From an uncultured bacterium (GTDB lineage: Bacteria; Patescibacteriota; JABMPQ01; CAVVCK01), in the NCBI GenBank assembly GCA_963746775.1, contig CAVVCK010000002.1, positions 431,656-495,655 of the forward strand: 64,000 nucleotides of DNA. The letters are read 5' to 3'. The notes beneath the pieces were generated by a model, which worked only from the letters and a program-made list of their open reading frames with translations, was not told the origin of the DNA and made no database searches. Below, in pieces: positions 1 to 60,683 of the stretch (positions within the stretch are counted from its first letter, which is position 1; every line of letters starts with the position of its first letter). A program made the position numbers and the translations under genes.

Positions 1-399
1 TAATTTATCTTGGCTAAATCCAGGAGCTATCAAAAACATCAAATGATCCATAAATATAAAAATCAAACTAGAAATTACCACTGTAACTAAAAGTAAAATA
101 TTTAATAATGAATTAGCAATTTCCCAAGCTTCATTTTTTTTATCTTTAGATAAATACTTAACAAAAACTGGCACAAAGGCAGATGATAGGGCACCTAATA
201 TTAATAGATTAAAGATAAAATCAGGTATACGAAAAGCAGCATAATAAGCATCTAACATATCTCCAGCTCCAAATTTGGCAGCAAAAAGACGATCTCTTAT
301 TAAGCCTAAAAATCTACTCAATAAAGAGGAAATGCCTAAAATAAAAGCGCCACGAGAAATAGCGGATTTTGATGAAAAATTTTTAAAAAATTTAAACAT
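1..399 (-). CDS. murJ: Lipid II flippase MurJ/MviN, N-terminal fragment (gene starts at 399 and runs off the window start)
   Basis: Translation of the minus strand gives MFKFFKNFSSKSAISRGAFILGISSLLSRFLGLIRDRLFAAKFGAGDMLDAYYAAFRIPDFIFN, a typical MurJ N-terminus. ATG at 397-399. Confidence 0.7.
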   Translation of the reverse strand, partial: MFKFFKNFSSKSAISRGAFILGISSLLSRFLGLIRDRLFAAKFGAGDMLDAYYAAFRIPDFIFNLLILGALSSAFVPVFVKYLSKDKKNEAWEIANSLLNILLLVTVVISSLIFIFMDHLMFLIAPGFSQDKL

Positions 400-417
400 A
401 AATAAAATTATACCTTA

Positions 418-2769
418 TTACTCTTTCTTACCTAACACAAACCCATAAACTTTATCACTGTTTATTTTATCTTCAACCCTAAATGTATTTTGATCTACTT
501 TTAAATTATCTGGATATTGCCAAATTGACTCATAGTCTGAAGGAAATTCTATTTGAGCCTTAAAATTAACCATATTAGGAGTTCCTGGTTGTTTTTGGAC
601 TAATAAACTATGTTTTTCAGCTAATTTACTTCCTAATGATATTTTAAAAGGCAGCTTATATTTTAACACTATTTCTTTTTCTTCTCCTACCTCTAACCCA
701 GAAAAGTTCCCAAAAACTGTCTTACCACTTTCTTCCGTTATACGAGTCTGAGATGGCTCATGAATCACTGTACTATCCTCAATCTCTTTTATTAAAGAGT
801 CGTCCTTTGCATTTCCATCTGCAGGCATTAAAACATTATAAAATTGATTATCAAAGCCAGAAGCATCTATTAAAATACTTCCTTTGGGTACATAGAGCCT
901 GAGATAAGAAACATTCTTAGTTCTAGTCCAAAAATCATTTTTATCACCATTGTGTTTTCTTTTTATTTTAACAGTATTTATGATTGACCCATCTGACTGT
1001 ATCTCGGAATTATAATCTATTCCTTGATCTATCACCTGATCTGTTTTACCTCCTCCAATATTACTTGCTACTAAAGATAAATAGTCTCCTTCTGTCTCCT
1101 TAACTTCCCCTCCCCAACCAAAATCTTTAATTAAATTTTCTAACTCTTCATCGGAAAAGTAAATTAAAATATCTTTCTTATAAAAACTATTTATAAATGC
1201 ATCCAGAACTTCTGGCCACTTATCTTTGTCGACATTAGATATTTTTTCAAAAAATTTTGGAAATAAATCAGCAATAAATTTTTTAGGTTTATTTAATTGC
1301 TTATCGTAATCTATCTCGACTTCTTTTTGAGCTTCGTTGAAAAAATTTTCGGAGGTAACTGTAACATTATAATCAGGCATTTCAATCGGTCCAGTTACTT
1401 TTAATAAATCTTCAAAAACAGAAGCTGTGAAAGTAACTACACCATCAACAGTTGGTCCACCTGCTTTCTCTTGCATTATATTAACTTTTTCAGCTGATGT
1501 TGGAAAATCTAGAAACCAATTAGCATCACGCATATATAACCTGGTTTGTATTAAGCGCATAGCTTCAGGAGCTTTTACATTATCTGTCAGCTGGCCATCA
1601 ATATTATAGGGTCCCTCTATTTTTAAATTGTTAATTTTACCCTCATCCATATCAAAAATACCATAAGTACCAATAAATCCTCCTGTAGCTCTTAACTCAC
1701 GATTGTTTTGAAAAAGTAATAAATATTTACGAGGCTGATTATGACCCAATAACTTTAATATTAAATCTACGTGAGCTGAAAAATATTCTAAGCCTTTTTC
1801 TAATTTAGGAATGCTTGATTTAAGTATTATCACTTGTGATTTATACTCTTCGGGAAAATCTTCTGCTTTTACATCTTCTAAATCAAGATTTGCTTGTTTA
1901 ATATTTTTTTGAGCTAATAAAATGTTTTCATAAGAAGAAGCCAGAGCAGTAGTAAATGATATTTTATTGTAAGAGGGTACTTTTTCGTTATTTTCTCCCT
2001 TAAATTCTGAAAATATATCTTCGGTTTTTGAAAAAGGTTCAAAAGCCTGAGTTAAACATTTAGAAGCATAGGAAACATTGGCACCAGCCTCTAATAATTT
2101 TTCTCCAGAATAAATACTTGATCCGCCAGGTACTTCTCTTAATAAACGAGCTATTATCTCACCTGTTCTGCCTAATTCTGATCCAGCCGCTTCAAAACGC
2201 TCAGCCGCTACATTAAACTTATAAGAAGCGAGATTATAGTCTTTTTCCATTATCGATCCTTCACCTGACATTAAATATTGATAAGCCACATTTGTATCAT
2301 CTAATATTTTGCCTTTTGTCTTAGATAAATTATTATCAACAAAAGCAAACCCTTTAATTGAAGATGTAAAAAATAAAGCAATTATTATAAAGGCAGTAAA
2401 TGATTTTTTTAAAAACAATAGCTTTTTAAATGAAATAAGCCCATTAGTCACTTGGTTAAAATTAAAATTTTTAACCACTGATTTTATAGTATTTAGCAAA
2501 TATTTCAATACTTTATCGTTCTTTCCCTTAAAACTTAAAATACTACTATTTTCTAAGTTTTGATTGGTCGCTCTTTCTGTCCCCTGTAACCTTAAATTAG
2601 ACTGAGTCGATTCATTAAATATTTTGTTTTGCTTATTTATATCAATGCTTCTTTTCTTATATACTTTATTTTTTTGGTCACCAAAATATTCCTGTTTTCT
2701 TTTTATCACTAAAACAGGTTTGATATCTGAGTAAAACCTTTTTTTATTTTTATTTGATTTTTCCTCCAT
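418..2769 (-). CDS. DUF4012-like membrane-anchored protein (N-terminal TM helix, large extracytoplasmic domain)
   Basis: 783-aa ORF. Motif LLFQNNRELRATGGFIGTYG resembles the DUF4012 signature. N-terminal TM segment. Context is next to glycosyltransferases. Confidence 0.55.
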   Translation of the reverse strand: MEEKSNKNKKRFYSDIKPVLVIKRKQEYFGDQKNKVYKKRSIDINKQNKIFNESTQSNLRLQGTERATNQNLENSSILSFKGKNDKVLKYLLNTIKSVVKNFNFNQVTNGLISFKKLLFLKKSFTAFIIIALFFTSSIKGFAFVDNNLSKTKGKILDDTNVAYQYLMSGEGSIMEKDYNLASYKFNVAAERFEAAGSELGRTGEIIARLLREVPGGSSIYSGEKLLEAGANVSYASKCLTQAFEPFSKTEDIFSEFKGENNEKVPSYNKISFTTALASSYENILLAQKNIKQANLDLEDVKAEDFPEEYKSQVIILKSSIPKLEKGLEYFSAHVDLILKLLGHNQPRKYLLLFQNNRELRATGGFIGTYGIFDMDEGKINNLKIEGPYNIDGQLTDNVKAPEAMRLIQTRLYMRDANWFLDFPTSAEKVNIMQEKAGGPTVDGVVTFTASVFEDLLKVTGPIEMPDYNVTVTSENFFNEAQKEVEIDYDKQLNKPKKFIADLFPKFFEKISNVDKDKWPEVLDAFINSFYKKDILIYFSDEELENLIKDFGWGGEVKETEGDYLSLVASNIGGGKTDQVIDQGIDYNSEIQSDGSIINTVKIKRKHNGDKNDFWTRTKNVSYLRLYVPKGSILIDASGFDNQFYNVLMPADGNAKDDSLIKEIEDSTVIHEPSQTRITEESGKTVFGNFSGLEVGEEKEIVLKYKLPFKISLGSKLAEKHSLLVQKQPGTPNMVNFKAQIEFPSDYESIWQYPDNLKVDQNTFRVEDKINSDKVYGFVLGKKE

Positions 2770-2800
2770 TGTTTTTGTTTTGCTTTTAAAATTATATCAC

Positions 2801-2840
2801 AAATACGTAGGGGTTCAAAATTTTGAACCCCTACGTATTT
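2801..2840. terminator. Perfect 18-bp palindrome AAATACGTAGGGGTTCAAAATTTTGAACCCCTACGTATTT, likely terminator after the GT4 gene
   Basis: Inverted repeat read directly from the sequence. It lies between two co-oriented genes. Confidence 0.5.
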
Positions 2841-2858
2841 GTAAATTATGTTTCATAT

Positions 2859-3995
2859 TTATTTTACATTTTCATAAATTTTTTGTGTCTCCTTCGCACA
2901 ATCTATCCAATTAAACTTTTTTATCTGTCTATAACCGTTATTAATCATATTATTTCTTAGTTGCTTATCTTTTAAAACTTTTTCGATATTTAAAACTATA
3001 TCTTCCCTATCTTTAGAATTAAAATATATTGCCGCCCTACCCAATATTTCAGGTAAAGAAGAAGTATTAGACGATATAACCGGTAAACCAAAACTCATTG
3101 CTTCTAGTCCTGGCAAACCAAAGCCTTCTATAAATGAAGGAAAAATATAAAGACTAGCTTTGGTATATAAATAAGCTAAATCTTTCTGGGAAGCAAAACC
3201 AAAAAATACTATTGAATTATCATGTAAAAGTCCTGTGCTATAAGCATCTTGTTTTAATCTTTTATAAAAATAATCTTCTTTCCCAATTAAAACTAGCTGG
3301 TGTGAAAAATTATTTCTTTTTTTAAATTCTTTGTAGGCCTCAATCATTCCTTCTAAGTTTTTATGAGGATAAGCATTGCCTACATACAAAATATAAGGCT
3401 TGGTTATTTTATGCTTTTCTAAAAATCCCGGCTCCGGAATGGATAACTGCCCACTCTCTACTCCGTCACAAGCCTCATAAGTAACTTCTACTTTATCTGA
3501 TCTTATTTTAAAATAACTTATCAAATCTTTTTTGGTAAATTCCGAAACCGTAATAACCTTTTTCGCTCTTCTAACAGCTGAATTAATAGCTAACTTATAG
3601 CCCAAATATTTAAATTTATACAATAATGGCCCTAAGGTAGTTGCCCTTTTAGTTGGAAATCTTAATAAAATTAAATCATGAATAGTAACTACGAAATCCC
3701 CTCGATATAATACTGGCACATTAAAATGAGGAAAATGCATCAAGTCAATCTTGTGCTCTTTTATCAATTTAGGCATTTTTAATTGTTCATCTAACGAATA
3801 CCATTTTAAATCAGCAACTATCTTTTCAAAATTTTCATTTTCAGGAATATATTCATCAAAATTTTCTTGGCGTAAAAAAATAATATACTGATTTGTTCTA
3901 TCAACTTTTTCTAAATTCTTTATTAATTTTTCTGTATAACGTCCCAGGCCTTTACCTTTAGGGCCGTAAAAGCGAGCATCTATTCCAATACGCAT
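2859..3995 (-). CDS. Glycosyltransferase family 4 (GT4)
   Basis: N-terminus MRIGIDARFYGPKGKGLGRYT and C-terminal EGFGLPGLEAMSFGLPVI motif are typical of GT1/GT4 retaining glycosyltransferases. Confidence 0.85.
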   Translation of the reverse strand: MRIGIDARFYGPKGKGLGRYTEKLIKNLEKVDRTNQYIIFLRQENFDEYIPENENFEKIVADLKWYSLDEQLKMPKLIKEHKIDLMHFPHFNVPVLYRGDFVVTIHDLILLRFPTKRATTLGPLLYKFKYLGYKLAINSAVRRAKKVITVSEFTKKDLISYFKIRSDKVEVTYEACDGVESGQLSIPEPGFLEKHKITKPYILYVGNAYPHKNLEGMIEAYKEFKKRNNFSHQLVLIGKEDYFYKRLKQDAYSTGLLHDNSIVFFGFASQKDLAYLYTKASLYIFPSFIEGFGLPGLEAMSFGLPVISSNTSSLPEILGRAAIYFNSKDREDIVLNIEKVLKDKQLRNNMINNGYRQIKKFNWIDCAKETQKIYENVK

Positions 3996-4164
3996 AATAG
4001 AATAAATATAATTAGTATCAAAATTCCTAATTTCTAATAAAATTTTTAATATCCAATGACAAATTATTTTTGAAATTTGACATTTGGATTTTTATTAGGA
4101 ATTAGAAATTGGTAATTGGAAATTAAAACACTGTATTACATAAAACAATATTAGTATAATCCTA
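3996..4164. repeat. Family-1 intergenic inverted-repeat element (GGAATTAGAAATTGGTAAT words)
   Basis: Arms AAAATTCCTAATTTCTAATAAAA and TTTTATTAGGAATTAGAAATTGG flank a nested palindrome ATCCAATGACAAATT...AAATTTGACATTTGGAT. The words are shared with five other loci. Confidence 0.6.
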
Positions 4165-5304
4165 TTACTTTTTATCTTCAAGCACACTTAACACGCTCTT
4201 TGCACATTCTTCCCATCTAAACTCCTTCACTCTCCCTAATCCTTTATTAATCAACCTTTGTCGCAAATTTTTATCAACTATTCCATTATAAACACCCAAA
4301 GCCAAATCATCAATATTATAAGGATCAATCAACAAAGCTGCATCTTGACATACTTCCGGTAAAGAAGAAACAAAAGAAGTTACTACCGGCACTCCACAAG
4401 CCATCGCCTCTAGTGCCGGAAAACCAAAGCCTTCATAAAAACTAGGATAAACAAATAATTTGGTTAAATTATATAAATAAGGCTTATCTTCTTCTTCTAT
4501 AAATCCTGGAAAAATTATATCTTTTTTATATTTTGATTTTTCCCAATTTTCAAATATCTTTTTATAGCACCAAGCTTTCTCCCCCGCAATAACTAATTTA
4601 TTATTAATTTTATTCTGGTCTCTTAATTTTTCATAAGCAGATATAAGCCCTACAATATTTTTGCGCGGCTCTATTGATCCTAGTGATAAAATAAAATCTT
4701 TTGGTAAATTATATTTTTTTCTAATTTCTTCCAATTTATTGTCGTTATTACAAACCTTTAAATTCTCATTTATTCCAGAATATATTATCCTGATTTTTTC
4801 TTCCGAAATGCCATATGTTAAAACTAGGTCATCTTTAGTAGCTTCTGATACTGCAATAATGTAATCATTGTCTTTAGCTAATTTCTTGGGGTTTACCACT
4901 CTATGCCAGAGTCTTCTCTTTAATGAGTAGAAATGGGAATAATGAGAAAAGGCTAAATCATGGAAAGTAATAATGTTTTGGCAATTTTTATCTAATGAAT
5001 AAAAAGAAATATTTGGTGCAAAGAATATATCACAATCTAAGATTTTACTTATTTTGGGATAGTTAAATAAAACAAAAGACAAATTTAATAATTTATTAGG
5101 TATTTTTGTTTTTTTTATCTCTACATTAGGAAAATCAAAGGCCTTATCTATATCAAAGGAAGGACCCTTAAATGAATTAAAAAAAAGCTTATATTGATTT
5201 TCTTGATCAATTTTAAAAAGATTAGTTAGAAGATTCAGGGTATAACCCTCTACTCCTGTTCTTTTACCTTCAGATAACATGCGAATATCTATACCTATTT
5301 TCAT
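4165..5304 (-). CDS. Glycosyltransferase family 4 (GT4)
   Basis: MKIGIDIRML N-terminus and EGFGFPALEAMACGVPVV motif. Confidence 0.85.
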   Translation of the reverse strand: MKIGIDIRMLSEGKRTGVEGYTLNLLTNLFKIDQENQYKLFFNSFKGPSFDIDKAFDFPNVEIKKTKIPNKLLNLSFVLFNYPKISKILDCDIFFAPNISFYSLDKNCQNIITFHDLAFSHYSHFYSLKRRLWHRVVNPKKLAKDNDYIIAVSEATKDDLVLTYGISEEKIRIIYSGINENLKVCNNDNKLEEIRKKYNLPKDFILSLGSIEPRKNIVGLISAYEKLRDQNKINNKLVIAGEKAWCYKKIFENWEKSKYKKDIIFPGFIEEEDKPYLYNLTKLFVYPSFYEGFGFPALEAMACGVPVVTSFVSSLPEVCQDAALLIDPYNIDDLALGVYNGIVDKNLRQRLINKGLGRVKEFRWEECAKSVLSVLEDKK

Positions 5305-9353: not shown

Positions 9354-9431
9354 ATATTAAATAATTGACCGCAAACTCTTTATTAGTACAGACAAGTTTA
9401 AAACTTGTTTCTTCATTATTAACTTTAAATA

Positions 9432-9882
9432 GGCAGGCTATAAGCCGAATTCTGTCTCATCCGCCATAGATTAACAGCGAAGGCGGATTGCCTTCATTGA
9501 AAACTACGGCGAATACTATGATCATCTATCTAGCCTTACTATTACTAGCAAGGTCATGCTTTTTATAAATTACACCAGATGGGGTTTACCCTATTATAAT
9601 GTTACCATTATAACCTGTGAGCTCTTACCTCACTCTTTTCACCATTGCCTGCCATAGCCTATAAAGGCGACGGCTGGCTGTATATGTCTCTGTGGCACTT
9701 TCCCTCACCCTATCTAGAAGATAGAGTGCAATTGCCGTTAGCAATCACCTTGTTTCAAAGTCCCAAGGATTAATAGAAAATCCTATGAGGTTTTTCTACT
9801 CTCGAATCCATAAGCTCTGAGGTGTTCGGACTTTCCTCCCCTTATTATTATATAAATAATAAGAAGCGATCATAAACCTGCC
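9432..9882 (-). ncRNA. rnpB: RNase P RNA, bacterial type A
   Basis: Minus-strand motifs GGGGAGGAAAGTCCGAAC (P4 5' strand), GGTGAAAAGAGTGAGGTAAGAGCTCAC (J11/12-P12 region) and GACAGAATTCGGCTTATAGCCTGCC (P4 3' strand/P1). The 5' GGCAGG pairs with the 3' CCTGCC. Confidence 0.85.
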
Positions 9883-10010
9883 TACTATAATAATAAAATA
9901 GCAAAGAAATTTATGCTATTATTAAAGTGGATTGGCTTATAACAAGCAATTTAGATAATATGTGAAAATTTTAACTACTCATATTATACTTATTTTAAGT
10001 CTTTTGTCAA

Positions 10011-29937: not shown

Positions 29938-32232
29938 TTATTCTTCTTTTAGTTTATATAAGTAATATTCTCCTTCATGGGCTACTAGATCCATGTGTTT
30001 GTTTTTAAATTTTATCACCCTTTTGTAATTATCTAAAGTAAAATTAGCATATTCTTGTGAGCCATTTTCTTGTTTAGCCCACAATATTCTTTCCGAAATA
30101 TTTTCCGTATACCCTCTCCAAATAAAATATCTTATGTTAAAATTTTTTAATACTCGGATAACATGTTCCTCAGTATTATTTTTTAATAAATAACTAATAT
30201 ATAATAAATAATGATCTTGTATATAACGGTTATTAGAGTTATCTATATAATAACCCCTTGCTTGATCTAATCCCCAAATCATTTCTTTATTATCTAAATT
30301 ATTATTTAAATATTCTGACATTAAATACAATTTATCTCTCGATATACTCGGATCTGGTGAATATAGAGACATATAATTTATTCTTTTGTTAAATTGTAAA
30401 TTTCCAATTGTAATTATCCAGATCGATAAGAATGTATATAAAAATAATTTTAGGTATTTATTTCTTGTAAAAAATATTTGACTCAATAAAACAAAAAATA
30501 AAACATACAATGAAATAGCATACCAGATAACAACATGTCCTATATAAACCCAACCGAAATATAGAATAATAGTAGCAAACAATAGTAAAATAAATTCCCT
30601 TTTCAATTTCCTATAAAATATATTCTTTATATAATAAAATATTATAACTGGAGCAAAAAGAATAAATGTAAAACCTATGTTTAACGCATCAGAAATATAT
30701 TTTTTATTTCCTATATAAGTAATATCAAAAGGTATATTTAAAAAATAACTCAAATCCTTTTTTTGTTTATCATCCCATATCAAGTAAGCTTCATTTCTCA
30801 TCTCATTAACTATATATTTTTGTGAATCTCGACCTAAAGTATCATAAAAAGATTGTTTTGAAGCTAACTTCTCACTTAAAATTGGGTCAATCGGGTTACC
30901 GCTAAATTTAATATTTCTGACAAACCATGGCAACATAAAAATAAATATTATTAATCCCCAAATAAAAAAATATTTTACTTTTATTTTATTTCTAATTATT
31001 TGTACTAGAAAAAATATTACCAACGGAACAATATACCATGTTAGAAAAAAATATTTTAACCCGGCCGCGATACCACAGAAAACACTAAAAATAATTAAGT
31101 CTTTTATTTTTCTTTTTTTTAGATAGTTTATAAAAGAACAATAACTGATCAATGTATAAAAAACAAAAATCATTTCTATTTTATGGTCTTCTAAATTTTG
31201 AAAAAATATTACAGGCAATGTTAAATAGGCAATAATAGCATAAACGCCACCCTTTAATTTATTTTTTCTAAAGAAATAATAAATGCATAAAACAATTAAT
31301 AAAGTAAAAATAAAAATAAGCGCTAAAGTTATTTGGAAGTTAAAAAGTAAATATCCTAAAGTAAATAACATTTCTCCATTTTGAGGAAAACCATAATAAA
31401 TCCAATAAGGAAAATTTACTATCCCATGATTCTCAACGAAAATCTTAGGATAAGTTAAATAGGAAATGAAAGCATCAAAACCAGAAGGAAATTGCTGAAA
31501 TATACCCGAAATATCAATTCCTAAAATCACAGGAATAATTAAAAAAATACCTTTTCCAAATAAAGTTAATTTTTTGAGTTCATAAAAATTATTTTTATCT
31601 TTAAAATAAGTCCACAATTCTATAATTTCTTTATAAGTAACAAAGGTTACAATAATCATTAAAACATAAGCAATAATTCTATAATATAAACCAAACATTC
31701 CTAAAAAATACACAATAAACATTAAAGCACCAAATCCTAGAGCACAAGAAAATAAAAACTTTTCTAAAAAAAAGCTAGTTTTATATTTAAATATTTTTAA
31801 TGTTTTACAACCTAAAGAAAAAGATATTAAAAATATCCAGGAAACTAAAATAATAGTAATTATATCATTACCAATAACGCCTAAATTATAAGAAGATCTA
31901 GCATAAATCCAGATAATCCATAAAAATGTAAAAAAATATAAAGACAAAGGCAAATAATATACAGGTATTTTTAAATCATTTATCTTATTTTTAAGTCCTT
32001 TTCTGCTTATTGACATAAAGTCTTTAATTTTTTTGCTTGGCCAAAAAATAATTAAAACTATTTTAAACAAAGCTAAAATATTAGCTATAAGTAAAGCAAA
32101 AGTAACAAACAAAGCTACTGATGATATAAATGCTTCTCCATAGTTAGGAAAACTATAAAAATAATAAACTATTACAACAATTCCCCACATCAGGAATAAT
32201 CCTGCAAAAATTTTTGAATAATATTTTTTCAT
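29938..32232 (-). CDS. Large polytopic membrane protein (more than 15 TM), possible GT-C/YfhO-like glycosyltransferase
   Basis: 764 aa, extremely hydrophobic, with a C-terminal soluble domain. Function not assignable from sequence alone. Confidence 0.4.
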   Translation of the reverse strand: MKKYYSKIFAGLFLMWGIVVIVYYFYSFPNYGEAFISSVALFVTFALLIANILALFKIVLIIFWPSKKIKDFMSISRKGLKNKINDLKIPVYYLPLSLYFFTFLWIIWIYARSSYNLGVIGNDIITIILVSWIFLISFSLGCKTLKIFKYKTSFFLEKFLFSCALGFGALMFIVYFLGMFGLYYRIIAYVLMIIVTFVTYKEIIELWTYFKDKNNFYELKKLTLFGKGIFLIIPVILGIDISGIFQQFPSGFDAFISYLTYPKIFVENHGIVNFPYWIYYGFPQNGEMLFTLGYLLFNFQITLALIFIFTLLIVLCIYYFFRKNKLKGGVYAIIAYLTLPVIFFQNLEDHKIEMIFVFYTLISYCSFINYLKKRKIKDLIIFSVFCGIAAGLKYFFLTWYIVPLVIFFLVQIIRNKIKVKYFFIWGLIIFIFMLPWFVRNIKFSGNPIDPILSEKLASKQSFYDTLGRDSQKYIVNEMRNEAYLIWDDKQKKDLSYFLNIPFDITYIGNKKYISDALNIGFTFILFAPVIIFYYIKNIFYRKLKREFILLLFATIILYFGWVYIGHVVIWYAISLYVLFFVLLSQIFFTRNKYLKLFLYTFLSIWIITIGNLQFNKRINYMSLYSPDPSISRDKLYLMSEYLNNNLDNKEMIWGLDQARGYYIDNSNNRYIQDHYLLYISYLLKNNTEEHVIRVLKNFNIRYFIWRGYTENISERILWAKQENGSQEYANFTLDNYKRVIKFKNKHMDLVAHEGEYYLYKLKEE

Positions 32233-56999: not shown

Positions 57000-57410
57000 T
57001 TGCATTTATTCTTTATTTCGTATTATAATTACTCTATGCAAATAAACATCCTAAAAAGCAAAAATCTCCAGCAATCCACATCTGAAATTACTAGAGACAT
57101 TTTTGAAGTATTTTCTATTTTTTATTTAATTTTATTATTAGTAAATCAAATAAAAATAGGCTTTGTGAGTGATTTCTTAAATTTAAATCATATCTTAATA
57201 ATTGTTGTAGTCTCAGGACTTTTATCTCTCTGGAAAGAAAAATTAGAAGTGGGCAATAGAGATTATGTTTTTATTGTAATTTTGGCTCTGCTTGGAGCTA
57301 TGGCTATATTCTATAAAACTTCTATCTTCGGAAATTTTAAAGCTTCTATTTTCGCTTTCTTGAGTTTTGTTTTTATTATTTTAGTTTTATTTTTTTTATT
57401 AAAGAAGTAA
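57000..57410 (+). CDS. Hypothetical small membrane protein (3-4 TM), plus strand
   Basis: 136-aa hydrophobic ORF, divergent from rpsL. No family recognised. The true start may be the internal Met (MQINIL). Confidence 0.35.
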   Translation: MHLFFISYYNYSMQINILKSKNLQQSTSEITRDIFEVFSIFYLILLLVNQIKIGFVSDFLNLNHILIIVVVSGLLSLWKEKLEVGNRDYVFIVILALLGAMAIFYKTSIFGNFKASIFAFLSFVFIILVLFFLLKK

Positions 57411-57463
57411 ATTGTTTTGCATTAAAAAAGACTGCACAAGAGCAATCTTTTTTTATTTATTAT

Positions 57464-58489
57464 TTAATAACCAATAGCTTGCCACTGTATTTCAGCCTCA
57501 GCAGGATAAGTAGAGCTACTCCAGTATACCCTAAAAGTATCACCATCTACTCGACTTATATATAAATTACCCAATTCACTTTCAGTTAATGTAGGATTAT
57601 TTTGACTGGTTGTTACATTATAGCTCGTATTACTTGTAAAAAAATTAGATGGTAATTCAATGGTATCAGAACAGCCCGCGATTACTGGGCAACCTGCTCC
57701 CCCTGAGGCACTAACATTAGCTACTCCGACTATTATTTTACTTGGATAAGGGTTAGGATTAGGCGTAGTTAAATTTGTATCAGAACCACTATCAGTACTA
57801 TAATAAACAGCATTTTCATTAGATACATCCACTCCATCTACATCACCACTCACGGTTAAATTACTTATACTTAAATCATCATCCACCCTCAACGTCACCT
57901 CTCCACTTGTTCCTCCGCCAGATAATCCTGTTCCAGCAGTAATTCCGGTAATATCACCTCCATTTACCCATTCTAAAGCCTCTCCATTATAGGATAGTAC
58001 TTGATTAGTTGAAGCAGCATTAGTAGTAGCTAGGTTATTAGTATGAATTACTCCTGTTCCTAACAAATTACCTACAGTTACCTCACCAGCAAAATAGGCA
58101 TCTTTCCACTGATTATCTTCCGTCCCTATATCGTTAACATTATTTAGAGCAGGCATTAGCGTATCGGCTATCTTTAAAGGCATATCATCAGCTGTTCCTT
58201 TAGAAGGCCCTCTCCAAATCATACCATCTACTCTTAAGTCATCACCCATAGTCAGAGGAACACTACCTGCTGAATTATTAATCATGGTACCATTGAAAAA
58301 AGTTACTCCGCCTTCGCCGGTAGTTTTACCAATGTAAGCAGAATCAAACCTGGCAGTACCATTAACTGTTAGATCCTCGTTGTAGGTAATAGTTTGAGCT
58401 GGTTGAAGATCGGTAGCGGGGGAAGCAGAGGCTAGATCCACCAAAGCGAAGATGCCTAAAATTGTTAGGAAAGGCAATAGTTTTTTCAT
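57464..58489 (-). CDS. Secreted Gly/Thr/Asn-rich repeat protein (signal peptide), paralog of the downstream gene
   Basis: Signal peptide MKKLLPFLTILGIFALVDLASA. Conserved N-domain ...DDLRVDGMIWRGPSKG..DMPLKIADT..NDIG..N.WK.AYFAG.VTVG shared with the 58526..60526 protein. Confidence 0.55.
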   Translation of the reverse strand: MKKLLPFLTILGIFALVDLASASPATDLQPAQTITYNEDLTVNGTARFDSAYIGKTTGEGGVTFFNGTMINNSAGSVPLTMGDDLRVDGMIWRGPSKGTADDMPLKIADTLMPALNNVNDIGTEDNQWKDAYFAGEVTVGNLLGTGVIHTNNLATTNAASTNQVLSYNGEALEWVNGGDITGITAGTGLSGGGTSGEVTLRVDDDLSISNLTVSGDVDGVDVSNENAVYYSTDSGSDTNLTTPNPNPYPSKIIVGVANVSASGGAGCPVIAGCSDTIELPSNFFTSNTSYNVTTSQNNPTLTESELGNLYISRVDGDTFRVYWSSSTYPAEAEIQWQAIGY

Positions 58490-58525
58490 TTTCTAAAGAA
58501 TTATTAATATTTCCTATATTATCAC

Positions 58526-60526
58526 TTATTGCAAACTGAGCAAAGTCATAATTTTACATTCCTCTTGATCACAAGACTCTAACGCTTTACCAAAAATAGA
58601 ATTTCTTCTTTCTTCGTTTTCTTTTAAGATAGATTTTAGCCCATCAAAATCACTAGCCTCATCAGTATCGCGTAAAGTAAATTTCATTGCATATCCTTCT
58701 CGAGAGGAGGTTGTTAATAGATCTCCGATTTCTATATTACCATTTTCGTTGATAACTTTTGTCGGAATTCTACCCGCCAAGGTAATTGGTGCCAAATTTT
58801 CGGGCATTTCATAATCTGCATCTAGACCTCCTAAACTACTAAAATTATTTGATTCTCCATCGAAATTAAAAGAAATGTTAGGAGTAGTACTCACTACGCC
58901 AATTACTCTTTTATCATAAGATGTATTAGTATGACCAACTTTTACATTGTCTACTAAAACAACTACGTCTCCTTTTTCTAGTTTTTTATTCGTAGAAAAT
59001 CCTTCAGCAAGATCATAGGCAGCTCCATCAACCCCGGTATCATATGATATAGTACCGTCGCCAACATCTGGACAACCAGCTCCAGGATTATTGCTTGGAT
59101 CATCTACACAAAGTCCGCCAAAAACTGCAAATACACCTTCTCTATTATTTTCGCATAATGTTGAAGATGGATTACACTTATCTCCACCCCAACTATAACT
59201 TTTATCTCCACTTGTAGTAGCTCCATAGCCAGTTGATATAGCATATTCTCCAGTAGCACTGCCACGACCCAAAACAGCTGAGTAATCACCACTTGCCAAA
59301 GCATCATATCCTAAAGCCATAGAATAATCACCTATATTACTATTATCCCACTGAACACTGTCTACATATCCTGCTCTAAAAGCAGATTTTCTGGGATACC
59401 ATAATAATTTTGTAGCTTCACCAGAAGCTTCCAAGGTTGTAGCTGTACCATAATCACCTTGGGCCACTATCATGCCATCATCATAAATAGTTGTTCCGCC
59501 GTCTGTAGCATCTCCATATCCCCCACCCACAGAAGCAGTTCCAGTTACACCCAGTATTCCACCTAATGAAGTATTTCCACCAGCTAAAAAATTTCCATCT
59601 AAAAACAAGCTCCCGGTATCATAGATAGTAACTCCCGTAGATCCATACCCTCCGCCAACAGTTAAATTGCTAGATGCAATTACGTTACCTGTCAAAGCAC
59701 TTATTCCACCTACTGTCAACATCCCTCCTGTAGTAAGAGAACTTGCCGATAAAGCTCCATTAGCATTGATACCGCCCGTGGTGTCATAAATTGTTACCCC
59801 GCTATCACCAAATCCACCAGCGATATCAATATCAGTTCCATCATTATAAATTAAACTAGAAGCTTCCCAACCATTTGATCCATATCTTATCGTTTGGCCA
59901 GAAGTTCCCGCAGGTAAAATACCTCCGTCACTAGTTCCATCTCCATCTGAAGAACCTGTTATGGGTATCCAGGTAAATTGGCCATTTTGATTATAAGATA
60001 ATACCTGGCCAGCAGTTGCACTATTAGTTACATTAAGATTTTCTTCATTAATAATGTTTGCTCCTTCTAAATCTCCAACTGTTACTGCCCCGGCAAAATA
60101 ACCATTTTTCCATCTATTTGTAGTCGAACCAATATCATTAATATCAGTCATAGTTGGAATCATGGTATCAGATATTTTAAGGGGCATACCATCGGAAATA
60201 CCTTTGGATGTTCCTCTCCATATTTCACCATCAATACGGACATCATCTCCAAACGTTACTGGTATATTACTAATTCCATTATCATCTAAAGAAGAATTGA
60301 CAATTGTATGGTCGGCAAAAATAACACCGCCCAGATGCATGCCCTCGTAAAAATAACTTGCTCTGCCGGCACTTACAGCACTATCGGTTCTTAACCTTTC
60401 TCCGTAAATAACATCTTCGGCCGGTTGAATTTCCTCCGCAGTAGATGCCTTGGAAATATTTATATTGAAAAAGCAAAAAACAATCGCTAGAAATAAAATA
60501 ACTGCAAATTTAGCTATTTTAATCAT
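58526..60526 (-). CDS. Secreted Gly/Thr-rich beta-helix-like repeat protein with Cys-containing C-terminal domain (adhesin or tail-fibre-like)
   Basis: Signal peptide MIKIAKFAVILFLAIVFCFFNINISKA. N-domain paralogous to 57464..58489. Long GG.G/TT repeats. The DNA is locally GC-richer (~40%+) than its surroundings. Confidence 0.55.
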   Translation of the reverse strand: MIKIAKFAVILFLAIVFCFFNINISKASTAEEIQPAEDVIYGERLRTDSAVSAGRASYFYEGMHLGGVIFADHTIVNSSLDDNGISNIPVTFGDDVRIDGEIWRGTSKGISDGMPLKISDTMIPTMTDINDIGSTTNRWKNGYFAGAVTVGDLEGANIINEENLNVTNSATAGQVLSYNQNGQFTWIPITGSSDGDGTSDGGILPAGTSGQTIRYGSNGWEASSLIYNDGTDIDIAGGFGDSGVTIYDTTGGINANGALSASSLTTGGMLTVGGISALTGNVIASSNLTVGGGYGSTGVTIYDTGSLFLDGNFLAGGNTSLGGILGVTGTASVGGGYGDATDGGTTIYDDGMIVAQGDYGTATTLEASGEATKLLWYPRKSAFRAGYVDSVQWDNSNIGDYSMALGYDALASGDYSAVLGRGSATGEYAISTGYGATTSGDKSYSWGGDKCNPSSTLCENNREGVFAVFGGLCVDDPSNNPGAGCPDVGDGTISYDTGVDGAAYDLAEGFSTNKKLEKGDVVVLVDNVKVGHTNTSYDKRVIGVVSTTPNISFNFDGESNNFSSLGGLDADYEMPENLAPITLAGRIPTKVINENGNIEIGDLLTTSSREGYAMKFTLRDTDEASDFDGLKSILKENEERRNSIFGKALESCDQEECKIMTLLSLQ

Positions 60527-60683
60527 TTTTTTTATTTTTATTTTTGTTTTAAATATTTTTAAAGATATTTATACTCTTGCTTATATTATAGCAAATTATA
60601 GCCTTGCGGTCAATATACAAACCAAAAGTTATCCCCTGTTATCTTTATACCACCTAACAAATCTTTCTATCCCTTTTTCTATA

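Follow-up and report, generated by a model that had tools for sequence, protein, structure and literature searches.

The gene pair and its shared N-terminal module

The stretch analysed here (the window: 64,000 nucleotides (nt) of contig CAVVCK010000002.1, from an uncultured bacterium of the Patescibacteria) carries towards one end two adjacent genes for secreted, repeat-rich proteins of 666 and 341 amino acids (aa), referred to below as the large and the small protein. Both open reading frames (ORFs) were confirmed on the minus strand at the coordinates given in Table 1, with 36 nt between them. A BLASTP comparison of the two proteins gave 42% identity over 210 N-terminal residues (E 2e-45), after which the similarity ends. 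Together with the Sec-type signals found on both, this bears out the initial annotation, made from the sequence alone, which had described tandem secreted repeat-protein paralogs. The conserved domain that it placed behind the signal peptide is indeed shared and takes in the quoted motif (IWRG..SKG..MPLKI.DT...DIG..N.WK..YFAG.VTVG), but its length is about 170-190 aa and not about 100. The description of the proteins as Gly/Thr/Ser-rich was likewise accurate, with 14.6% G, 9.3% S and 8.9% T in the large protein.

The two genes probably form one operon, as suggested by a promoter match upstream of the large gene and a terminator-like hairpin after the small gene. The promoter call is a consensus match only, and promoter-like sites in the region are no more numerous than in shuffled sequences. 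None of 200 shuffles folds as well as the hairpin, which sits between the convergent small fibre gene and a membrane-protein gene. A standard terminator scan did not call this hairpin.

Table 1. Features of the fibre gene pair, with positions counted from the first letter of the window
Feature	Coordinates	Strand	Basis or remark
Large paralog, 666 aa	58526..60526, stop included	(-)	exact ORF match
Signal peptide of large protein, aa 1-27, predicted cleavage SKA|S	60446..60526	(-)	sequence; hydropathy maximum 3.4, aa 9-20
N-module of large protein, aa 28 to ~195	59942..60445	(-)	Patescibacteria-specific cap (IQPA...GGV.F...RIDG) and stalk motif (MPLKISDTMIPTMTDINDIGSTTNRWKNGYF)
Gly-rich fibre shaft, aa ~196-360, approximate bounds	59447..59941	(-)	translation; three GG(G/F)(Y/G)xSGVTIYDT... 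repeats
YadA-head-like beta-roll repeats, aa ~365-445 (LWYPRKSAFRAG...NIGDYSMALGYDALASGDYSAVLG)	59192..59434	(-)	Pfam PF05658
Cys-containing neck, aa 446-504 (C451, C458, C473, C485), putative role	59015..59191	(-)	ends at predicted cleavage site Y504|D505; low AlphaFold2 confidence
C-terminal Peptidase_G2-like intramolecular chaperone/autocleavage domain (predicted), aa 505-666	58529..59014	(-)	begins D505-L-A-E508
Small paralog, 341 aa	57464..58489, stop included	(-)	36 nt downstream of large gene
Signal peptide of small protein, aa 1-22, predicted cleavage ASA|S	58424..58489	(-)	sequence; A22 at least 90% conserved (alignment A1)
N-module of small protein, aa 23 to ~178	57956..58423	(-)	67-sequence alignment; AlphaFold2
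Junction motif DITGITAGTGLSGGGTSGEVTLRVDDD, aa 179-205, breakpoint of C-terminal exchange	57875..57955	(-)	PHROG 38058; comparison with P0031
C-terminal head of small protein, aa 206-341, ends ...WQAIGY (C267, C273)	57467..57874	(-)	shared with P0035
Sigma-70-like promoter, TTGACC-17-TATAAT with extended TG	60585..60613	(-)	11/12 hexamer positions, ~60 nt upstream of ATG at 60526
A-run / 12-bp hairpin / U-run, likely bidirectional intrinsic terminator	57424..57453	.	-13.7 kcal/mol, z = -4.9

The signal peptides were assigned from sequence by hydropathy and a small-x-small cleavage site, and the AlphaFold2 (AF2) model of the small protein places a helix over aa 4-20, in the signal-peptide region. 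The same arrangement recurs across the family. An [LIVM]QP[AS] motif lies within the first 110 residues of 101 of 167 family proteins; a hydrophobic segment stands just ahead of it in 100 of these 101, and a small-x-small site lies 5-7 residues upstream in 97. This arrangement argues for processing by signal peptidase I and for a conserved mature N-terminus. The signals are of the classical AxA type and not of the class III prepilin type. A pilus-tip role, one of the candidates put forward initially, thus finds neither a pilin-type signal nor conserved pilus neighbours (a PilB-like neighbour occurs at only 4 of 76 family loci).

The region common to the two paralogs, termed the N-module here, is carried by about 80 database homologs (individual homologs are given P numbers, and genomic contigs L numbers, below) and always stands right behind the signal peptide, with subject starts at aa 20-60. 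Its consensus reads LQPA..ITYNEDLTVNGT.RF.S.YIG..G.GGVTFFNGTIIN...PVTFGDDVRIDG.IWRG..KG..DD.PLKI.DT..P...N.ND.G....W...Y, and residues Q29, P30, G54, G61, V62, R86, D88 and G89 are invariant in an alignment of 67 sequences. As a whole, the N-module has no match in Pfam or NCBIfam and none in a single-sequence search of the PDB. The homologs are therefore not the ordinary conserved cell-wall proteins that the initial annotation had allowed for, since the module matches no curated family; spanning about aa 25-190, it could instead be defined as a new domain family and serve as a marker.

A HMMER search against 1.84 billion cluster representatives found the N-module in 579 proteins at E<=1e-3 and in 257 at E<=1e-10. 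A scan of one genome per species, with results that leave aside the window's own genome, gave 81 relatives, nearly all in metagenome-assembled genomes (MAGs) of Patescibacteria labelled as Parcubacteria, Kerfeldbacteria, WWE3, Doudnabacteria and Saccharibacteria, while a few MAGs carry other labels (Gammaproteobacteria, Pirellulales, Ignavibacteria and an archaeon). The corresponding metagenome scan yielded five short contigs only. Multiple copies per genome are frequent, with at least six loci in MAG JTS-AC97 and tandem arrays of up to six genes, and most members are small (about 230-370 aa). No relative of the N-module was confirmed among the 2.9 million viral contigs of IMG/VR, and tblastn searches of 50,697 phage genomes with the N-module and the C-terminal domain of the large protein returned matches at E~0.1 only (PA5oct-like virion proteins and a P-HM1 fibre).

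The two halves of the N-module differ in what they resemble. The first half, or cap (LQPA and GGVTFFNG), matches nothing known, whereas the second half (about aa 100-175) bears a stalk motif, D.liP...N.(N/Y)DlG....rW...Y. A family profile search matched this motif to the tailspike gp42 of Acinetobacter phage AS12 (6eu4, E 6.4e-5), to a fibre of cyanophage P-SCSP1u (E 3.3e-3) and weakly to the L-shaped fibre of T5. The stalk unit is repeated 5-15 times in giant proteins, and the end of the endosialidase stalk domain PF12219 was matched by two of the six giants scanned against Pfam. Three giants (P0262, P0292 and P0326; 1730-2806 aa) contain the stalk motif 9-15 times and look like very long fibres made of this unit; a Pfam scan of P0262 and P0292 returned nothing. 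In the AF2 model of the small protein, aa 30-145 form an extended chain without regular secondary structure at a predicted local distance difference test score (pLDDT) of 76-90. Such a model would resemble a single chain taken out of an intertwined trimer.

Fibre body, chaperone-like domain and mosaic tips

Behind the N-module the two proteins part ways. In the large protein, Gly-rich GGGYGSTGVTIYDTG-type repeats occupy about aa 235-350; the GG(G/F)(Y/G)xSGVTIYDT-type repeat recurs in P0003, P0041 and P0018, and AF2 confidence is low over the shaft. The YadA-head repeats that follow exceed the Pfam gathering score of 25 for PF05658 (30.2 bits with the full protein, at aa 399-423 and with two stretches, and 32.4 with the fragment), and AF2 places short regular strands at aa 402-432. 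The AF2 model of the large protein covers aa 341-666 only, since the full-length alignment (A2) misaligned the N-module and was dropped. Over aa 501-666 the pLDDT is 90-98. The large protein thus does end, as was initially proposed, in a Cys-containing globular domain; Cys residues stand at 451, 458, 473, 485, 652 and 657.

Several comparisons relate this C-terminal domain to the Peptidase_G2 domain of the phi29 pre-neck appendage gp12. A dedicated search with the domain returned 101 homologs, five of them with a precomputed PF11962 assignment, and Pfam Peptidase_G2 (PF11962) is matched by 12 of 87 aligned homologs with a best E of 1.6e-8. The alignment profile of the domain matches gp12 in the PDB (6qz9, E 1.7e-5; 3suc, E 1.1e-4). 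The cleavage-site region of gp12 (SDFAEYFE) is aligned on the family motif DlAEeF, so that S691|D692 and E695 fall on Y504|D505 and E508 and D505-L-A-E508 lies on the cleavage-site motif D692-F-A-E695. In the 'pre-mature' uncleaved crystal form of gp12 (3suc), Gln stands at the Glu position. D505, A507 and E508 are each at least 90% conserved in the 87-sequence alignment, where GDLLTTS, GYAMKA, GKALE and a terminal LQ are near-invariant too. A Foldseek search of the PDB placed 3suc (E 9.8e-5) and the gp12 C-terminal fragment 3gqh (E 2.2e-4; template modelling (TM) score 0.54, target-normalised) first, both at probability 1.0, with trimeric phage capsid cement proteins next in line. Nearly all of about 100 homologs carry the domain right up to their final residue, and it is common in viruses, with at least 392 relatives in IMG/VR, many of whose alignments start exactly at D505. 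The gp12 C-terminal domain is an autochaperone that is required for trimer folding and is then cleaved off (PMC3357383, PMC4690869). On these alignments, aa 505-666 are best described as a divergent G2-type domain and not as a clean family member.

These results also bear on a more ordinary view of the pair, namely that the proteins are common secreted repeat proteins whose resemblance to phage proteins reflects convergent, low-complexity similarity. Their Gly/Ser/Thr-rich composition would suit such a view, and single-sequence searches gave nothing significant, whether by phmmer against the PDB with both proteins, against NCBIfam or against cultured phages. However, the matches lie outside repetitive sequence and involve specific motifs (D-x-A-E, GDLLTTS, GYAMKA, GKALE and P..N.NDLG...RW..Y), the high-confidence model of the C-terminal domain has gp12 as its top structural match, and the Pfam G2 family is reached by the dozen homologs counted above. 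We therefore regard this explanation as very unlikely.

In the small protein, a junction region of ITAGTGLSGGGTSGEVTLRVDDD type follows the N-module. It matches PHROG 38058 'tail fiber protein' (E 5.7e-7, aa 152-218), and the motif is also present in P0043, P0045, P0037 and P0040. The head beyond it comprises 136 aa, with low AF2 confidence and without a match in the PDB. Gp53-like_C (PF21882) matches the head weakly (16.1-18.8 bits against a gathering score of 24.9), and such weak matches, with a best E of 0.0024 and below the gathering score, occur in four of six homologous heads. Among the homologs, at least four unrelated C-terminal solutions stand behind the same N-module: Peptidase_S74 (P0045, P0037), the G2-type domain (window locus, P0002), the WQAIGY head (window locus, P0035, P0042) and a '...ITYTYTEPY' domain (P0031, P0043, P0040).

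Exchange of these tips can be followed in individual pairs of proteins. Residues 1-205 of P0031, which comes from another assembly (contig of 547,309 bp, against 547,535 bp for the contig of the window proteins), are identical to those of the small protein, after which the two are unrelated; the tip of P0031 resembles that of the paralog P0043. Conversely, P0035 has a tip 71% identical to that of the small protein, whereas its N-terminal part aligns at just 47% over 83 aa. Such domain-level incongruence is the pattern of recombining receptor-binding proteins, and the tips are mosaic between apparently closely related assemblies. In a short-read assembly of run ERR11571143 (Logan contig ERR11571143_4359233, L002), the large gene is present and the contig breaks 26 nt into the small gene. 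The break points either to a repeat, namely the signal-peptide/N-module DNA shared with the paralog P0090, or to differences between strains within the small gene.

Base composition and genomic context

The gene pair had been remarked upon as less AT-rich than its neighbours, with a hint that the segment might be compositionally foreign. The first point stands: in windows of 500 nt the GC content is 0.38-0.43 over the pair and 0.20-0.35 in the flanks, against 0.314 for the whole 64 kb. GC at third codon positions (GC3) is 0.235 and 0.206 in the two genes, compared with a background of 0.211±0.038 calculated from 63 ORFs of the window, whereas GC at second positions (GC2) is 0.47 against 0.323±0.046, or about three standard deviations higher, and at first positions (GC1) 0.47 against 0.429±0.058. 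The GC rise is thus an amino-acid effect only, stemming entirely from codon positions 1 and 2 (mainly 2), because the fibre composition is rich in Gly, Ser, Thr and Ala. Amino-acid bias alone, which the initial annotation had allowed for, accounts for the raised GC2 alongside a background GC3. The GC rise was accordingly rejected as a mark of foreign DNA.

The context of the pair is cellular. One flank holds rpsL, rpsG and fusA, and the other a NAD-dependent epimerase gene, a UDP-glucose 6-dehydrogenase gene and metK. The same order (metK, UDP-glucose dehydrogenase, epimerase, fibres, S12, S7 and EF-G) is conserved on a 1.05-Mb contig of a related organism (L001), where the fibre array consists of three tandem family members of 692, 463 and 300 aa. 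A full-length ortholog of the large protein encoded there, P0002, is 52% identical at 100% coverage. The window ORFs that were scanned are housekeeping genes (glycosyltransferases, RecJ, iPGM, a NiFe-hydrogenase subunit and a Na/H exchanger), and many short ORFs at about 36-53 kb, judged by position and order, look like ribosomal-protein operons. No phage gene was found among the scanned window ORFs or in the flanks. The core-gene flanks, and a gene order kept in a relative whose proteins are about 50% identical, show the locus to be cellular and inherited vertically, and neither foreign DNA nor a prophage.

A prophage or prophage remnant integrated beside the str operon, in which the two genes would encode virion tail fibres, can hardly be reconciled with this context. 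What speaks for it are the phage-like parts themselves (the G2 chaperone, the stalk motif and the PHROG tail-fibre match), the NCBI name 'tail fiber domain-containing protein' given to homologs, and a transposase (rve) gene that L001 also carries. Both proteins, however, carry Sec signal peptides, whereas the proteins of a virion are put together in the cytoplasm and have none. Moreover, no further phage gene accompanies them in the scanned ORFs or flanks, their GC3 is identical to the host background, the array is bordered by the same core genes in a genome with about 50% protein identity, and the N-module is absent from 2.9 million viral contigs and gives matches no better than E~0.1 in cultured phages. 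The context, the shared gene order, the signal peptides and this absence from viral contigs led us to reject the prophage explanation, which they largely refute, and we give it next to no weight.

A further gene converges on the fibre array. At 57036-57410 on the plus strand, it encodes a protein of 124 aa that contains several hydrophobic segments and has no match in Pfam, and a close homolog occupies the same convergent spot in the related genome (L001, 14838-15212). The gene could be a mere neighbour by conserved order, or its product could be tied to the fibres in function, perhaps as a membrane partner.

A proposed family of exported, phage-like fibres

We consider it reasonably likely, with a probability of roughly 0.6, that the pair represents two members of a Patescibacteria-specific family of Sec-exported fibres resembling phage receptor-binding proteins, which would be trimeric, self-maturing and equipped with exchangeable tips. 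This reading builds on the paralogy, the secretion signals, the near restriction of the N-module to Patescibacteria, the phage-type blocks, the conserved G2 cleavage motif, the mosaic tips and the cellular locus. Among the candidate roles initially proposed, it is the domesticated phage tail-fibre-like module that the data favour, through the G2-type C-terminal domain, the stalk motif, the S74 domains of homologs and the YadA-head match above threshold. Both proteins would be exported by the Sec pathway, with the signal peptide cut about 5-7 residues ahead of the invariant Q-P. Three chains would then assemble into an intertwined fibre, since the YadA head, the triple-beta-helix stalk motif and the G2 chaperone all have their homologs in obligate trimers. 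In the 666-aa protein, folding would be nucleated from the C-terminus by the phi29-gp12-type intramolecular chaperone (aa 505-666), which is predicted from homology and the conserved motif to cleave itself at Y504|D505 by means of D505 and E508 and so expose the mature tip. The N-module may serve as the constant end that docks all paralogs to one common cell-surface structure, in line with its modularity, and the mosaic C-terminal parts would be variable, recombining, ligand-binding tips. Recognition of, or adhesion to, the surfaces of partner or host cells would be the most likely role in an organism with a genome of about 0.55 Mb.

Several observations weigh against this interpretation. The large protein itself does not match PF11962 even at E<=1, so that its link to the family runs through homologs and profiles, and its P1 residue is Tyr, a position that is variable in the family and Ser in phi29; in both respects the domain departs from gp12. 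The Foldseek matches combine a probability of 1.0 with a low query-normalised TM-score (0.28) and a root-mean-square deviation of 11-13 Å. For the small protein, no recognisable chaperone domain and no fold match for the tip were found, and a fold search of its monomer model against the PDB and BFVD gave no significant match, the top non-significant PDB matches being tailspikes, endosialidases and T4 gp34; a monomer model of what appears to be an intertwined fibre is, as a model, not informative. That P0031 is an allele at the small-gene locus is itself something that we infer. In addition, everything beyond the architecture, including trimerisation, cleavage and surface location, rests on homology. 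Lastly, no anchor was found in the form of an LPxTG motif, a second transmembrane segment, an SLH or LysM domain or a conserved partner gene, and the fibres could simply be released.

The last point is the basis of a different proposal, in which the proteins are extracellular fibres, enzymes or toxins of the depolymerase or bacteriocin type that act at a distance, unattached to the producer. The lack of any anchor would be expected of such proteins, and phage relatives matured by G2 or S74 domains are often depolymerising tailspikes (PMC4690869). Yet searches of both proteins for a catalytic, beta-helix depolymerase or toxin domain gave nothing, and a conserved partner gene of an immunity-like kind is lacking. 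The N-module, moreover, is strictly conserved while the tips vary, which speaks for docking. We regard release of this kind as quite improbable.

The search for anchors also bears on sortase anchoring, for which the initial annotation had suggested a motif check, and on S-layer proteins, one of its candidate roles. Sortase anchoring found no basis, as an LP.[TSA]G motif is present in neither protein and no hydrophobic segment lies beyond aa 40; nor was an S-layer assignment upheld, with no SLH or other lattice or anchor domain in Pfam or NCBIfam. In a broader form of the latter idea, the pair would be structural components of the envelope (S-layer or cell-wall-associated fibres) that play no specific part in partner recognition, and the variable tips would reflect the drift of an exposed coat under immune or phage evasion. 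The proteins are secreted, Gly/Thr/Ser-rich and multi-copy, with sugar-nucleotide and glycosyltransferase genes close by, and hypervariability is common in exposed coats. We nevertheless judge this alternative improbable, considering that no known S-layer or cell-wall-binding domain is present, that most members are small, and that cassette exchange behind a constant N-module, combined with tailspike chaperones, is a hallmark of receptor-binding proteins and not of lattice-formers.

Comparison with known systems places the proposed fibres between phage and cellular precedents. With phi29 gp12 (PF11962; PDB 3GQ7-3GQK, 3SUC, 6QZ9), the large protein shares a C-terminal beta-stranded domain behind a trimeric fibre or helix, the superposition of D505..E508 on D692..E695, the best structural match of the AF2 model and the extreme C-terminal position. 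It differs in being cellular and Sec-exported and not part of a virion, and in a body made of YadA-head repeats and a Gly-rich fibre, where gp12 has a pectate-lyase-like beta-helix. Cleavage and maturation of gp12 are reportedly ATP-dependent, and ATP is not available outside the cell. If that dependence were general, maturation of the window protein would have to differ, so a G2-type domain in an exported protein raises a mechanistic question.

The triple-beta-helix stalks of endosialidase K1F, the T5 pb1 L-shaped fibre and AS12 gp42, which are matured by a Peptidase_S74 chaperone (PF13884), offer a second precedent. The likeness lies in the stalk motif P..N.(Y/N)DLGs...RW..Y in the second half of the N-module, in homologs and paralogs with the same N-module that end in PF13884 (P0045, P0037, P0038, P0047), and in the plan of a constant N-terminal end, a variable tip and a cleavable chaperone. 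In contrast, neither window protein matches PF13884, both have signal peptides, and the motif lies near their N-terminus instead of just ahead of a cleavage site.

Trimeric autotransporter adhesins of the YadA type are likewise elongated, presumably trimeric and surface adhesin-like, and they share the YadA-head repeats. The window protein, however, has no YadA_anchor beta-barrel (no Pfam match), a G2-like C-terminus and no outer-membrane context, and the polarity is reversed, as the constant, putatively anchoring end is N-terminal in the window proteins and C-terminal in the YadA type. Without the anchor and with a G2-like C-terminus, the window proteins are not trimeric autotransporter adhesins; we also know of no outer membrane in Patescibacteria. 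The 'tail fiber domain-containing proteins' encoded by cells of Bacteroidota and other groups (YadA_head with Peptidase_S74) correspond to the middle and C-terminal blocks, and members of this type (P0015, P0019-P0028) are homologs of the YadA region of the large protein. In the comparison made here they gave no alignment to the N-module, and the window protein has a G2-type domain in place of S74; no tested function of these proteins was found in the literature. The eukaryotic membrane transcription factors MYRF and MrfA, with a domesticated S74 intramolecular chaperone domain, are an earlier example of a phage tailspike module for trimerisation and self-cleavage that has been domesticated in cells (PMC3742443, PMC8326128), although they differ in having S74 and not G2, in kingdom and in purpose, which is the release of a transcription factor.

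Cell-encoded tail-fibre-like proteins are thus an already known kind, and NCBI names the S74-bearing homologs accordingly. What appears to be new is the defined Patescibacteria N-module, its pairing with a G2-type chaperone in a Sec-exported protein, and the cassette exchange; no description of the N-module family was found in literature on Patescibacteria, the candidate phyla radiation (CPR) or Saccharibacteria combined with 'tail fiber'. How the ultrasmall cells of CPR/Patescibacteria find and hold partner cells is largely unknown. Type IV pili are, to our knowledge, the chief factor that has been linked to it. Being abundant per genome, secreted and built of receptor-binding-protein parts, the family would provide candidates for cell-cell recognition and binding in the CPR, and with the large protein the self-cleaving chaperone of phi29 type (G2) would be extended to a cellular protein exported through Sec. 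More tentatively, the entire scheme by which phage receptor-binding proteins work may have been domesticated by Patescibacteria to serve as a recognition system that is exported by Sec and borne on the cell, although we find this wider proposal doubtful. Such a system would combine a lineage-specific docking module at the N-terminus, absent from viruses, that joins interchangeable fibres to one conserved surface structure, tips exchanged between paralogs and strains at the conserved ...TAGTGLSGGGTSGxVTL... junction, and G2 or S74 autochaperones that fold the fibres extracellularly before removing themselves. If this were true, tip exchange would decide which host cells an episymbiont can attach to.

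The neighbourhood of the family was surveyed at 76 loci. Among 717 neighbours, no conserved operon-like partner or anchor gene was found, and the recurrent ones are uvrA, NHL-repeat proteins, an FtsX-like permease and an O-antigen-ligase-like protein. A family member and uvrA are no more than about 6 kb apart at 16 of these 76 loci. On contig L004, from the same sample as the window, uvrA stands directly upstream of the S74-type paralog P0045, ahead of groES/groEL (98-4522). The far end of that contig (7986-10184) encodes Pro/Ala-rich proteins, one of them Ser/Thr-kinase-like, with a composition unlike the AT-rich remainder, and the contig may be a chimeric assembly. On L003 (8422-9954), the gene immediately upstream of the paralog P0043 encodes a secreted M23 peptidase with fused FG-GAP repeats, an arrangement that would pair a fibre with a cell-wall hydrolase.

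Elsewhere in the window, the ORF with the lowest GC (0.231, GC1 0.27) encodes a 764-aa PMT_2-like (dolichyl-phosphate-mannose-type) glycosyltransferase at 29938-32232 on the minus strand; together with the many glycosyltransferase and sugar-nucleotide genes of the window, this enzyme might glycosylate surface proteins such as the Ser/Thr-rich fibres. The minus-strand ORF at 25467-26735 matches the NiFeSe_Hases Pfam family of nickel-dependent hydrogenases, on a contig of just ~0.55 Mb. ARAGORN found zero tRNA genes across the 64 kb. Almost every gene of the window (1-64000) is on the minus strand, and the GC skew is negative throughout. A bacterial class A RNase P RNA was identified at 9425-9885 on the minus strand (166 bits); it measures 461 nt against a model of 367 positions and hence contains about 90 nt of insertions.

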